A stretch of 64,000 nucleotides of DNA from Patescibacteria group bacterium. Lineage in GTDB: Bacteria > Patescibacteriota > Minisyncoccia > Phycocordibacterales > JACOZG01. Below are positions 3,013-64,000 of the stretch, in pieces. The position numbers were made by a program, and so were the translations under genes. Location of the stretch: assembly GCA_034658935.1 (NCBI GenBank), contig JAYEGE010000008.1, positions 68,678 through 132,677 of the forward strand. The letters are read 5' to 3'. Within the stretch, counting starts at the first letter, position 1. Every line of letters begins with the position of its first letter. Below the pieces are notes generated by a model that searched no databases, was not told the origin of the DNA, and saw only the letters and a program-made list of their open reading frames with translations.

Positions 3013-4251
3013 ATGCCTAAAACACGTCGAATTAATTTTGATACCGCCGCCGCTACACCACTGGACCCGGCAATCAAGCGAGAGATGAATGCTTATCTAC
3101 GCAGCAATTTCGCTAACCCGTCTGGCTTGCACCAAGAGGGGGTGGCGGCGGCGCGTGAGCTTGCCAATGCCCGTGCGCGAGTGGCTGCCATCCTTGGTGC
3201 TCACTCTGACGAGATTGTTTTCACTAGTGGCGGGACTGAGGCGAATAACTTGGCGGTTTTTGGCGTAGTTGAGGCTCTTGAATCATTTGGACACGCCGTG
3301 TCCAAATCAAGGAAGCCCATTTGGACATGGCGTGTCCAAATGCAGGTGGTTACTTCGGCCATTGAGCACGCCTCGGTATTGGGGGCGGTGCGGGTGCTCG
3401 AGGGGCGGGGAGTGAAGGTGAGTTATCTGTCAGTAAATCGTGAAGGCTTAGTTAATCAAAAAAAATTGAAGACCGCCTTAAATAAAAAAACCAAACTCGT
3501 TTCTATTATTTATGCCCATAATGAAATTGGGGTGGTCCAACCGATCAGGGAGATTGCTAAAATTATCCGTCACCATTGTAAGCGGCATGGGACGGTTTAT
3601 CCTTATTTACATATTGATGCCTGCCAGGCGCCGCGTTTTCTTGACATCAACGTGGCTCGCTTGGGCGTAGACTTGATGACAATCAATGCTGGTAAGATTT
3701 ATGGCCCGCGTGGTATTGGTGCGCTCTACGTTAGGCGAGGTGTCGAGCTTGGGGCGCAATCAGTCGGTGGTAGCCAGGAGGGTGGACGGCGAGCAGGGAC
3801 TGAGAACGTGGCCGGTGCCATCGGCCTAGCCGGGGCCCTAGAAATTTGTGCTAAGGAGCGCGAAAAAGAAGCCAAGAGATTAAGCAAATTGCGCGATCAA
3901 TTAATTGCTGGCTTATTAAAGATTGATGGTGTTGAGTTGAATGGGCCACTGACAGAAAGATTGCCCAATAACGTTAATATTGGTGTTGGTGTCCCTAATC
4001 TAGAAAGTGAACAGGTGGTCATCGAGCTTGATGCCCAGGGCATTGCTTGTTCTACTGGCGCGGCTTGTAGCATTCCTAAACGTGACGGTTCCTATGTTAT
4101 AATGGCTCTAGGCAGAGACGAAGTGGCGGCGCGGAATGCAATTAGATTTACCCTTGGGCGGGAGGCGACGTCGGCTGACGTTAGGCATGTATTAAAAAGT
4201 CTAATAGCAATTTTCAAAAAATATGTACCAAGTCCCATCACTAAAATTTAG
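3013..4251 (+). CDS. cysteine desulfurase (class V aminotransferase, IscS/NifS group I)
   Basis: Has the TSGGTEANNLA motif, a PLP-lysine region and the C-terminal active-site Cys loop (ACSTGAACS). It carries an unusual in-frame palindromic insert at 3285-3343. Confidence 0.9.
   Translation: MPKTRRINFDTAAATPLDPAIKREMNAYLRSNFANPSGLHQEGVAAARELANARARVAAILGAHSDEIVFTSGGTEANNLAVFGVVEALESFGHAVSKSRKPIWTWRVQMQVVTSAIEHASVLGAVRVLEGRGVKVSYLSVNREGLVNQKKLKTALNKKTKLVSIIYAHNEIGVVQPIREIAKIIRHHCKRHGTVYPYLHIDACQAPRFLDINVARLGVDLMTINAGKIYGPRGIGALYVRRGVELGAQSVGGSQEGGRRAGTENVAGAIGLAGALEICAKEREKEAKRLSKLRDQLIAGLLKIDGVELNGPLTERLPNNVNIGVGVPNLESEQVVIELDAQGIACSTGAACSIPKRDGSYVIMALGRDEVAARNAIRFTLGREATSADVRHVLKSLIAIFKKYVPSPITKI
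3285..3343. repeat. tandem pair of about 23-nt palindromes (ATTTGGACACGCCGTGTCCAAAT) embedded in-frame in the desulfurase CDS
   Basis: Copy 1 (3286-3308) is a perfect palindrome. Copy 2 (3320-3342) has one mismatch. The two are separated by 11 nt. Confidence 0.8.
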
Positions 4252-8003: not shown

Positions 8004-8063
8004 GATTAATCGACCCCGAGGGTCGATTAAGGGGGACGCTCTTTCCTGGCGCTGAGGGTCCCC

Positions 8064-11482: not shown

Positions 11483-12338
11483 ACCAAGTCATTTGGCGTT
11501 TGGCATATTGCCAATTAGTGATTTCTAGCTTTCGCAACAAGCTAATTTTCTCGCGTTGGGAATTATTTTGTTGCTTCCGCAAGAAGTCTGCAACGTAACG
11601 ATATTCTAAACCGAAATCATCTAATCTCTGCCAGGAGATTTTTTGTTTAGCGTGCAAGTTTTTCACCTCAGTGGTCAGGCCCCGCCTTAGTCTCTGTTGC
11701 AGTCGTTTGTTTATTTTCTCTTGCAAAATTTGCTTGCCTGGATTGAGGCCAATCCAGAAGGTGTCAAAGATTTGCCCCCCCAAGGACTCTCCTTCTGCAG
11801 AAGGAGAGTCCTTGGGGGGATTGGACGTTCTTGTCGCACTGGCAATCTCAATAGCCCTAATAAGACGACGAGGGTTATGTTTGTCGATATTCTTCACCCG
11901 AGCAGGATCAAGGACCTGGAGTTTTTTAAACAATTTAGTCGCTCGCCATCTCTCTAGTTCTTTTCTCAGTTCCAAATTAGGTGGTATTGCCGGCAAAGAT
12001 AGCTCGTTTAGTGCTGCCTGGATATATAACCCAGTGCCGCCGCAGATAATGGGCAGGTGGCCGCGCTCGGTAATTTCTCGGATTTTTTTCTGTGCCAGCT
12101 TTTTATATTTAGCCACGGTGAATTGCCCTCGCGGACTGGCGATATCAAGTAGGTGATGGGGGACGCCTTTCATTTCCTGTTTAGTGATCTTGCCACTGCC
12201 TATATCTAGGCCACGATAAACCTGGCGAGAATCAGCTGAGATCACCTCGCCATCAAGTTCCTTTGCCAACTCTACTGCCAGACCACTCTTGCCTGAGGAA
12301 GTTGGGCCAACTATTACTAAGACTTTTTGTCTGTCCAT
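11274..12338 (-). CDS. miaA: tRNA dimethylallyltransferase (MiaA)
   Basis: P-loop GPTSSGKS and the conserved DSRQVYRGLDIGSGK motif. It contains a 44-nt perfect palindrome in-frame. Its C-terminal about 70 aa overlap the convergent VKOR gene. Confidence 0.85.
   Translation of the reverse strand: MDRQKVLVIVGPTSSGKSGLAVELAKELDGEVISADSRQVYRGLDIGSGKITKQEMKGVPHHLLDIASPRGQFTVAKYKKLAQKKIREITERGHLPIICGGTGLYIQAALNELSLPAIPPNLELRKELERWRATKLFKKLQVLDPARVKNIDKHNPRRLIRAIEIASATRTSNPPKDSPSAEGESLGGQIFDTFWIGLNPGKQILQEKINKRLQQRLRRGLTTEVKNLHAKQKISWQRLDDFGLEYRYVADFLRKQQNNSQREKISLLRKLEITNWQYAKRQMTWFKRDSQIQWMRDEHPSSSSGQVAKMMPQIKTWRSRRKQYNTDTKRQLQNPGDRENRASQQSREPGERAK
11776..11819. repeat. 44-nt perfect palindrome inside miaA coding sequence
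   Basis: CCCCCCAAGGACTCTCCTTCTG|CAGAAGGAGAGTCCTTGGGGGG, with 22-bp arms and no mismatches. It encodes the same peptide PPKDSPSAEGESLGG on both strands. Confidence 0.9.
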
Positions 12339-20064: not shown

Positions 20065-20144
20065 AATTATCCCTCCGCATATATTTTGAATTAACTGTAA
20101 TGAACAACGCTGTGCTGAGTTTAACTATCTGGATGTTTTTTGCA

Positions 20145-20172
20145 AATGTTAAACACCGGGTGTTTAACATTT
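20145..20172. repeat. REP-like 28-nt perfect palindrome (AAATGTTAAACACC|GGTGTTTAACATTT)
   Basis: It overlaps the dprA stop codon. The arms closely resemble the palindromes flanking the RAYT gene at 63272-63965 (AATGTTAGACATT..AATGTCTAACATT). Confidence 0.7.
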
Positions 20173-40184: not shown

Positions 40185-40258
40185 CTCCACTTGGAGGAAG
40201 AACCTCCAAGTGGGGGTGTTTAAATAAAAACAACAGTGCCACGGCGCTGTTGTTTGAA
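40185..40258. terminator. two back-to-back hairpins forming a bidirectional terminator between rpoD and the convergent DsbA-like gene
   Basis: CCACTTGGAGG..CCTCCAAGTGG and AAACAACAGTGCC..GGCGCTGTTGTTT. Confidence 0.55.
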
Positions 40259-60880: not shown

Positions 60881-61612
60881 ATGACCGACACCCTGCTCCA
60901 ACTTAAAGATGTCCACGTTCAATACGGCGGCGTTAAGGCCCTCGATGATGTGTCAGTGGAGATTGATGAGGGAGAGGTGGTGGCCTTGATGGGGCCCAAT
61001 GGGGCAGGGAAGTCGACGGTGCTTAAGGCGATCTTTGGCCTGGCGCCAATTGCCAAGGGTAAAGTGCTCTGGCATGAGCATCCGGTGGCTCCGCGACCAG
61101 ACGAGATGGTGGCTCGAGGACTCTCCTTCGTTCCTCAAGGTCGGCGGGTGTTCCGCCGCCTAACGGTGCAGGAGAACTTGGAGATTGGTGGTTATGTTAT
61201 TAAAGATAAGAAATTGGTCCAGGAGAGGATAAAGGAAGTCTCAGAAATCTTCCCTGACCTCAAAACTAAACTTAAGGCCAAATCGGGGACCCTCTCTGGC
61301 GGCCAACAACAAATGCTCGCCATCGCCCGCGGCCTCATTACTGAGCCTAAGGTACTCTTACTCGACGAACCTTCGCTCGGCCTCTCGCCTAAATTAGTTA
61401 AGGAAGTCTTTGCTAAAATTAAAGAAATAAACGAGCGCCATAAGACGGCGATTATGGTAGTAGAACATAATTTGAAGTCCCTTCTCCAAATTGTCCACCG
61501 AGCCTATGTTCTCGACAAGGGGCGCCTGGTCGGCGATGGTCCCGCCGCCCAATTTGCTGAAAAAGATTTCCTCAAGAAAGTCTTTCTCGGCCAAGTTGAA
61601 GCAGCAGCCTAG
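60881..61612 (+). CDS. livF: ABC transporter ATP-binding protein (LivF type)
   Basis: Walker A GPNGAGKST, signature LSGGQQQ, Walker B LLLDEP. Confidence 0.85.
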   Translation: MTDTLLQLKDVHVQYGGVKALDDVSVEIDEGEVVALMGPNGAGKSTVLKAIFGLAPIAKGKVLWHEHPVAPRPDEMVARGLSFVPQGRRVFRRLTVQENLEIGGYVIKDKKLVQERIKEVSEIFPDLKTKLKAKSGTLSGGQQQMLAIARGLITEPKVLLLDEPSLGLSPKLVKEVFAKIKEINERHKTAIMVVEHNLKSLLQIVHRAYVLDKGRLVGDGPAAQFAEKDFLKKVFLGQVEAAA

Positions 61613-61617
61613 CTGTG

Positions 61618-61650
61618 CAACACTAAGTGTTGCACAGCTAGTGTCTTGAA
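61618..61650 (+). terminator. hairpin terminator after livF
   Basis: AGCTGTGCAACACTAAGTGTTGCACAGCT is a perfect palindrome. Confidence 0.5.
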
Positions 61651-63271: not shown

Positions 63272-63300
63272 AGATGTTAGACATTCAATGTCTAACATCT
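63272..63300. repeat. 29-nt perfect palindrome (AGATGTTAGACATT-C-AATGTCTAACATCT), REP-like element flanking RAYT
   Basis: It overlaps the RAYT stop codon. It is the exact reverse complement of the core of the palindrome at 63937-63965. Confidence 0.85.
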
Positions 63301-63924
63301 GTTGATATCTAACTCCTCTTCTATTTCCTCAGCCTTTTTCTTGGCTACAGAGCTGGCGAGAAAGCTTTTGTATTCGTCTTTATCATTAAATTGATCAGTG
63401 ACGATACTCGGAGTCAATAAACAGGGCCAGCGATTAGATTTTAAGTAATCGTTACGGCTATTCCATCCGCCGGTATGTTTATGAATATAGGCAGAGAGAT
63501 GAAGAAGTTGGTCATTATCTTCAATATGAACCGATTTGTATCGTCCTTGAAATAAATGGCCAGATTGCTGGTATTTATTATTGAAGTATTTGGTATGGGA
63601 ATTGAGCAATCTTTGCATGTAGCGAAATATCCCCTCATCGACATGGTTTTTTAGTAAGAGGTGGAAGTGGTTGGGCATAAGGGAGAAAGCCACCAAGGAG
63701 ACCTTCCTTTGCTGGACAATTTCTTTAATCGTTTCTTGGGAAGTGTTAAACATTGAATGTCTAACAAAATAGGAGACAGGGCGGGTTAGATTGGTGAGGG
63801 TTAGGTCTGATTGAAAGTGTAAGATCGAGAACAAAAATCTCACCCAATCTTGTTGATCCCGAAAAATCTGGTTTTTCAAAACCCCGCGGTTATATACATG
63901 GTAGTATTCGTCAGGAATTTTCAT
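63292..63924 (-). mobile_element. REP-associated tyrosine transposase (RAYT), IS200/IS605 Y1 HUH family
   Basis: N-terminal YHVYNRG, HUH motif MPNHFHLLL and catalytic Tyr in GRYKS. Inverted palindromic repeats flank it. Confidence 0.8.
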
Positions 63925-63936
63925 CTGTCTATTATC

Positions 63937-63965
63937 TAATGTTAGACATTGAATGTCTAACATTA
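63937..63965. repeat. 29-nt perfect palindrome (TAATGTTAGACATT-G-AATGTCTAACATTA), REP-like element
   Basis: It sits 12 nt upstream of the RAYT ATG. It is inverted relative to the downstream copy. Confidence 0.85.
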
Positions 63966-64000
63966 ATGAACAAGTATTGAGTGTTGGATACAAAAACACC

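Follow-up and report, generated by a model that had tools for sequence, protein, structure and literature searches.

A RAYT-like gene with matched flanking and in-frame palindromes in a Patescibacteria genome points to a predicted REPtron-like unit

Among the closest described systems is the REP-associated tyrosine transposase (RAYT; REP, repetitive extragenic palindromic) of Escherichia coli, RayT or TnpA_REP, whose catalytic tyrosine is Y115 and which requires a GT[AG]G foot to bind and cleave (PMC3479197). This foot is absent from subclasses 2.6 and 3 of Quentin, and tnpA_Y1 genes were found to be enriched in large genomes in a survey of complete genomes (PMC6006769). In the literature that we searched, we found no description of a RAYT/REP system in Patescibacteria, or candidate phyla radiation (CPR) bacteria; one preprint gives just a KEGG K07491 match, in an archaeon. 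Here, we analyzed a 64-kb stretch of DNA (the window; GC content, 48.5%; ~89% coding) from a Patescibacteria metagenome-assembled genome (MAG), in which a RAYT-like gene next to ychF is flanked on either side by a perfect palindrome. We found that these palindromes differ in sequence between related loci, match each other at any one locus, co-diverge with the protein, and have a third copy in frame within the gene. Altogether, we consider it probable that the gene and its palindromes form a REPtron-like unit belonging to a large CPR-specific clade of predicted RAYT-type (TnpA_REP-like) HUH/Y1 single-strand DNA endonucleases.

The RAYT-like protein (accession MEA1929761.1, encoded on a 132,795-bp contig) matches the Pfam family Y1_Tnp (PF01797) with an E value of 6.7e-13 and 49 bits (cut-off, 23). 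Its best NCBIfam model is REP_Tyr_transpos with 37.3 bits, which is under the curated equivalog cut-off of 80, while the IS200 model NF033573 gives 17.1 bits against a cut-off of 55; among 30 aligned relatives, REP_Tyr_transpos is the best match in all 30 and the IS200 model is matched in two. In a Foldseek search of the PDB, the top match of the AlphaFold2 model (pLDDT 86.9) was 4er8_A, i.e., E. coli TnpA_REP in complex with a REP hairpin (E value, 4e-5), and the TnpA proteins of ISDra2 and IS608 ranked after it. 4ER8 was reached by this fold search; a profile search of PDB sequences gave weak matches to IS200-type chains only. Based on a profile alignment (hhalign) with RayT of E. coli MG1655, which has ~15% identity over 101 aligned columns, LMPNHFHLL pairs with VLPEHMHCI and SAYIHKH with VDYIYINP, and the catalytic Y115 of RayT falls on Y146 (63487-63489). 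These data favor a RAYT-like over an IS200-like protein, in agreement with an earlier note on this DNA that had called it a RAYT-type Y1 protein with an HUH motif (H86-F87-H88, 63661-63669). That note had also counted 211 residues, where there are 210, and had placed the catalytic tyrosine in GRYKS. Because H86, H88, and Y146 are invariant across the alignment and Y115 of RayT aligns with Y146, the GRYKS tyrosine (Y129) is probably not the nucleophile; rather, the candidate is Y146, downstream of which lies a C-terminal extension of ~60 residues. Relatives are numerous. Searching 1.84 billion cluster representatives with a profile gave 1,038 clusters at an E value of ≤1e-30 and 13,890 at ≤1e-10, and the named members of the clade are from CPR lineages throughout.

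The features of the locus, together with those found elsewhere in the window, are listed in Table 1.

Table 1. Coordinates (window numbering) of the RAYT-like gene, its palindromes, and related features
Feature	Position	Strand	Description
RAYT-like HUH/Y1 gene	63292..63924	-	Open reading frame (ORF) and translation; 210 aa plus TAG stop; ATG at 63922-63924, TAG at 63292-63294; N-terminus MKIPDEYYHVYNRG
Upstream perfect palindrome	63937..63965	.	TAATGTTAGACATT-G-AATGTCTAACATTA; 14+1+14; ends 12 nt before the ATG
Downstream perfect palindrome	63272..63300	.	AGATGTTAGACATT-C-AATGTCTAACATCT; 14+1+14; contains the RAYT TAG stop (63292-63294)
Internal palindrome copy	63743..63767	.	3 mismatches in 25; 21-nt core at 63745-63765 with 1 mismatch; mismatch-tolerant search
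Extra half-site	63305..63313	-	GTTAGATAT; differs from the arm at one position; precedes the downstream core by 8 nt in the sense of the gene
Promoter-like site	63931..63959	-	-35 TAGACA, 17-nt spacer, -10 GATAAT; 10/12 matches in consensus scan
In-frame palindrome doublet	3283-3309 and 3318-3342	+	TTTGGACAC type; 8 nt apart; in cysteine desulfurase gene 3013-4251
Solo palindrome	8006-8030		Close to the cognate palindrome of another RAYT subclade
Solo palindrome	20144-20172		Overlaps the stop codon of dprA; differs from the L051/L052/L055 type by one mismatch
Solo palindrome	40187-40213		CCACTTGG type
Solo palindrome	61609-61641		Overlaps an ABC ATPase gene at its stop codon; resembles that of L091

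The two flanking palindromes share a core, ATGTTAGACATT-N-AATGTCTAACAT, for which we found three matches in the window compared with 0.00 expected from 100 dinucleotide-preserving shuffles; a chance origin was therefore rejected. The downstream palindrome lies 10 nt past the stop codon of the convergent ychF gene. As single-stranded DNA, the upstream copy is predicted to fold with -10.5 kcal/mol (z = -6.5) and the downstream copy with -11.4 kcal/mol (z = -5.2). The stems are perfect and unbulged, the palindromes contain no GT[AG]G foot, and the sequence beyond the arms is not conserved. The extra half-site listed in Table 1 has counterparts at other loci. Altogether, 13 of 96 flanking palindromes (the one in the window and 12 in L044-L123) have an extra arm copy at a distance of 9-32 nt from the full palindrome, while shuffled arms give an expectation of 1.0 in 96. 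We speculate that these half-sites may be scars of cleavage and strand-transfer events.

A metagenome scan gave 80 loci whose homologues have 35-53% identity. When we required arms of ≥9 nt with no more than one mismatch, at most 70 nt from the start and at most 60 nt from the stop (strict criteria), palindromes were present on both sides at 48 of the 73 evaluable loci, and in 43 of these 48 the two flanks agree at ≤3 mismatches in 21 positions. Loci outside this set mostly have a palindrome on one side. Between loci, the sequence varies widely, with the forms GTTAAACAC.cga.GTGTTTAAC, GTCCAAAGC.cga.GCTTTGGAC, GTGCAAAGCC.a.GGCTTTGCAC, TGTGGCCACT.a.AGTGGCCACA, and CTTGGGGGTG.a.AACCCCCAAG; the palindrome differs between lineages, yet both flanks of any one gene match. 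Moreover, protein distance correlates with the distance between palindrome arms (Spearman 0.59), and none of 2,000 Mantel permutations was as high. Because the palindromes change between loci while the flanks match and co-diverge with the protein, this comparison of sequences supports that they are the cognate sites of the RAYT-like protein. To this extent, the description as cognate REPs in the earlier note holds; the classical sense of REP is not supported, as the palindromes are footless, perfect, without a further copy in 74 kb, and sparse across the family. The coordinates agree with the two 29-nt perfect palindromes described there, one over the stop codon and the other 12 nt upstream of the ATG, while the shared core is 25 nt long and not 27. 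The two copies had also been described as inverted with complementary centers. This is correct for the window locus, where the center base on the plus strand is C in the downstream and G in the upstream palindrome; as a family rule, we rejected it because the asymmetric center has the same orientation at both flanks in 18 loci and is inverted in 22.

The third copy at the locus, which the earlier note did not mention, lies within the gene. Its 21-nt core encodes V54-R-H-S-M-F-N60 in frame, and its single mismatch is a G.T pair on the sense strand. We analyzed this copy in 53 loci, i.e., 50 metagenomic loci together with L001 (the window's own locus), L018, and L026. It matches the palindromes of its own flanks at 0-2 mismatches in 41 of these and is identical to them in 26 of the 41; in contrast, matches at this level were obtained in only four of 370 pairings with non-cognate palindromes. 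The copy is located at nt 159-183 of the gene (mode 171) or, in the CTTGG clade, at nt 441-456; it is in frame without exception, and four genes have both sites. At the first site, at least seven of nine arm pairs are kept in 46 of the 80 loci compared with 20 of 733 control windows. The encoded peptide varies with the palindrome (VKHSVFNI, VQSRALDN, VQSQALHI, CGHLVATS, and LGGETPKS), arguing that it is the DNA that is constrained, third-codon positions all included, and not the protein. In the AlphaFold2 model, the first site (residues 54-60) sits in the sole low-confidence stretch, with pLDDT below 50 at residues 47-55 and a mean of 50-62 over residues 41-60; the second site (about residues 148-155) comes directly after the Tyr helix. 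Because the loop length at the internal site is constant in the alignment, the data fit an old site that is kept matched by substitution or conversion and not repeated insertion.

The upstream palindrome is closely associated with a predicted promoter. The -35 hexamer of the promoter-like site falls within the palindrome arm, and 6 nt separate the end of the -10 hexamer from the ATG. Similarly, a TATAAT-like hexamer (at least five of six matches) stops 4-9 nt (mode 6) short of the start codon in 42 of the 53 loci compared with 7.6% of random positions, and the end of the palindrome core lies between 1 nt inside this hexamer and 27 nt upstream of it, mostly at ≤20 nt. On the basis of the usual geometry of promoters, we infer that the RAYT mRNA would be leaderless and that the upstream palindrome would be placed like an operator. 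As a separate observation, the genes of the clade (L044-L123; 63931-63936 in the window) combine a TATAAT-like box ~6 nt before the start with the lack of a Shine-Dalgarno-like spacing, which also suggests leaderless mRNAs.

Building on the layout, covariation, and fold observed here and on the biochemistry of E. coli TnpA_REP and IS200/IS605 (PMC3479197), we propose the following model. The palindromes would form hairpins on single-stranded DNA, to which the encoded protein would bind as E. coli TnpA_REP binds REP hairpins. Occasional cleavage by Y146 and strand transfer could seed solo copies at the 3' ends of genes and in permissive loops of proteins, and the same activity could homogenize the copies in and around the gene by concerted evolution. 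Because the upstream palindrome overlaps the promoter, we suggest that protein bound at this copy probably auto-represses the gene. Tentatively, and with more doubt than confidence, we also suggest that the in-frame copy is a working part of the unit. According to this suggestion, a substrate hairpin is embedded in the enzyme's own coding sequence as well as over its own promoter, and the protein acts on its own gene by auto-repression and/or by RAYT-catalyzed conversion that protects a "master copy" within the gene. If true, this would be a self-referential enzyme-substrate module kept across ~1000 50%-identity clusters of CPR bacteria; the overlap with the promoter and the copy in the gene make the hypothesis of autoregulation or self-conversion directly testable.

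Several observations weigh against a REPtron-like unit. The REP_Tyr_transpos score of the protein is below the curated cut-off, the palindromes lack the foot, and at ≤3 mismatches there is no additional copy of the core in the window or in the next 10 kb, i.e., in 74 kb of the source genome. About a third of the evaluable loci fail the strict two-flank test, and the cognate internal copy is missing in 12 of 53 loci. The co-divergence of palindromes and protein could be explained by the shared descent of the whole locus instead of co-adaptation. Finally, two MAGs with seven to eight solo copies (JACOYH01 and JBBTTI01) show no RAYT in the 8-kb loci.

The history of the locus bears on whether the unit moves on its own. 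Among pairs of RAYT genes with at least ~75% identity, many have homologous flanking genes with a divergence comparable to that of the gene. At the ychF 3' end, relatives vary. In a Saccharibacteria MAG (L029, CAYIMH010000076.1), the YchF protein of which is 74% identical, a solo palindrome at 148-168, 9 nt past the ychF stop codon, is present without a RAYT, and this palindrome, GTTAAACATTGAATGTTTAAC, differs from that in the window by a compensatory A/T change in both arms. In L125, L126, and L128, relatives at 79% and 70-71% identity, the orthologous site is empty, with neither palindrome nor RAYT. The synteny of close pairs together with the variable ychF 3' site argues that the gene is stable at short evolutionary distance, while palindrome and gene appear to come and go over longer distances.

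This variable site is one of the points in favor of an autonomous IS200-like insertion sequence, with the palindromes as its left and right ends and transposition of the unit as a single-stranded circle; the Y1_Tnp fold, the hairpins at both ends, and the many homologues on short contigs also agree with such an element. We nevertheless consider it very unlikely. The protein scores higher as a RAYT than as an IS200 protein, and the proteins of the clade have 210-230 residues with a conserved C-terminal extension, while solved IS200/IS605 TnpA chains have ~130-150; the ends are identical perfect palindromes and not distinct, imperfect left and right ends. Also, close relatives are syntenic with flank divergence resembling that of the gene, the window contains a single copy (no second RAYT was found in it by tblastn or profile search), and there is no tnpB near the gene. 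Carriage by phages or plasmids was likewise rejected, as IMG/VR viral contigs contained neither relatives nor palindrome matches and 72,556 plasmids gave only six distant partial matches. Scarcely credible, in our view, is a further alternative, by which the internal copy is a functionless relic of one old REP insertion in a tolerant loop and resembles the flanks by shared ancestry. REPs inserted in frame have been described in tnpAREP and other genes, where loops are thought to tolerate them (PMC6006769, PMC3733652), and the internal site has diverged in those loci without a cognate copy. However, the internal copy follows flanks in which more than half of the positions, among them all seven third-codon positions, differ between clades, in proteins that are only 35-50% identical. 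Because it tracks the flanks through such deep divergence, drift from one old insertion is insufficient, and ongoing conversion or selection is needed.

The palindromes could also be purely regulatory sites on double-stranded DNA, i.e., an operator, a roadblock within the gene, and a terminator or stabilizer at the 3' end, bound by the protein as a repressor or by another factor without any cleavage or mobility. Their perfect dyad symmetry, the location of the downstream copy at the stop codon of two convergent genes, and the upstream copy, which abuts or overlaps the -35/spacer region of a leaderless-start -10 hexamer in the 42 loci described above, are all in line with this. Nonetheless, we regard a regulatory function alone as unlikely. 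A pure repressor would not need the invariant HUH and tyrosine residues, and solo copies are found at the 3' ends of unrelated genes and in frame within other genes. A consensus scan found no intrinsic terminator at the palindromes, which are AT-rich and without a T-run, unlike the canonical GC-rich terminators with a T-run that directly adjoin them. Nor did a test for G.U strand bias support a role of the RNA: the ratios of G.T to A.C mismatches on the sense strand (8:6 in internal, 8:3 in downstream, and 5:5 in upstream copies) show no significant bias, and an Rfam scan of the whole window at gathering thresholds found tRNAs only. We retain the predicted REPtron-like unit as the best explanation.

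Solo copies are sparse. In 451 kb of flanking DNA of the homologue loci, we found 10 solo cognate palindromes (~1 per 45 kb), where the number expected by chance is far below one. When one genome per species was scanned with GTTARACATTNAATGTYTAAC, we obtained 42 loci, in which CPR MAGs predominate; exact copies of the window palindrome occur eight times in JACOYH01, seven times in JBBTTI01, five times in JACPGX01, and also in several Saccharibacteria MAGs. About 30 of 34 CPR copies are outside ORFs of at least 90 aa, and many are within 30 nt of a stop codon. Among the 42 loci, the three-copy RAYT layout is present in L026 only, and the fetched 8-kb loci of JACOYH01, JBBTTI01, and JACPGX01 contain no RAYT homologue, indicating that solo copies need not have a RAYT next to them. 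In these three MAGs, the cognate gene may be unassembled, may have been lost, or may lie beside a slightly different variant of the palindrome. Outside the CPR, an A/T variant of the search pattern was present in Bacteroidota MAGs (L007, L012, L022, L033, and L034) and in Gammaproteobacteria (L002 and L005), and several of these sites are embedded in a longer palindrome with complementary flanks; they may represent REPs of Bacteroidota RAYTs or ordinary terminators.

The window also holds solo palindromes of other classes in the same style, with 1- or 3-nt centers and perfect or near-perfect arms, in intergenic positions. The four at 8006, 20144, 40187, and 61609 (Table 1) are each near the cognate type of a different metagenomic RAYT subclade, and the window contains no RAYT that would be cognate to them. 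The doublet in the cysteine desulfurase gene encodes GHAVSK and WTWRVQM and adds 16 residues compared with IscS (PDB 4r5f); related peptides are present in the nearest cysteine desulfurase homologues (62-69% identity) and not in remoter ones. For annotation, this means that proteins such as this cysteine desulfurase carry palindrome-encoded loop inserts. Two observations concern other DNA. At 11776-11819, the window has a 44-nt perfect GC-rich palindrome (CCCCCCAAGGACTCTCCTTCTGCAGAAGGAGAGTCCTTGGGGGG), which is unlike the AT-rich family. Downstream of the window (3426-6407 of L001, ~3.6-6.6 kb past window position 64000), a leucyl-tRNA-synthetase-like gene has a NUDIX Pfam match between its synthetase segments, and this gene is kept near ychF in relatives, including L126, L127, and L128.

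The unit proposed here is a minimal module, in which a single gene is combined with three or four copies, at fixed positions, of one perfect palindrome that has no foot. CPR bacteria have very small genomes; a large RAYT-like clade in these bacteria goes against the enrichment of tnpA_Y1 genes in large genomes. Moreover, the natural covariation of flanks, internal copy, and protein could help to decode how Y1 enzymes read hairpins.

Compared with known systems, the unit is most similar in structure to the E. coli RayT/TnpA_REP REPtron (Quentin subclass 2.2; 4ER8), with which it shares the HUH motif and single tyrosine in a Y1 fold, hairpin-forming repeats of its own on either side of the gene, and a W..(P)xS(S/T)(Y/F) motif in the C-terminal extension that follows the Tyr helix; the E. 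coli gene is single-copy, and the window contains one RAYT. It differs in having no 5' GTAG foot, perfect arms of 12-14 bp instead of bulged, imperfect stems, single palindromes instead of BIME (bacterial interspersed mosaic element) or REPIN doublets, a copy number that appears very low, a copy inside the ORF, and a host genome that is expected to be small. With IS200/IS605 TnpA proteins (IS608 and ISDra2), it has in common the Y1 HUH fold, and recognition of single-stranded hairpins is the expected chemistry; however, those TnpA proteins are shorter, and their elements have distinct left and right ends with guide and cleavage tetranucleotides, are multi-copy and horizontally mobile, and often carry tnpB, none of which we found for the CPR unit. 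The REPIN-RAYT systems of Pseudomonas and Enterobacteria (Bertels and Rainey; PMC5581495) consist of a single-copy, vertically inherited RAYT with its own flanking repeat and co-divergence between the two; the CPR unit, which occurs once in the window and whose close relatives are syntenic, resembles them in the flanking repeat and the co-divergence. Their REPs form inverted doublets in tens to hundreds of copies, while the CPR palindromes are single and sparse.

Frame-preserving REP copies within the gene, in peripheral variable regions, are also known from tnpAREP genes of subclass 2.4 (Cyanobacteria and Bacteroidetes; PMC6006769). In the CPR clade, by contrast, the sites are fixed, lying either before the HUH motif or just behind the Tyr helix, and the loop does not vary in length, the palindromes are footless, and the copies co-vary with the flanks; by the description of subclass 2.4, the position of the in-frame copy and the missing foot set the CPR unit apart. 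Finally, intragenic REPs and Rickettsia palindromic elements (PMC3733652) are likewise palindromic repeats that lie in frame in protein loops, as does the cysteine desulfurase doublet in the window. They belong to other repeat families and other hosts, whereas in the CPR unit the gene that hosts the repeat encodes the repeat's own putative enzyme.

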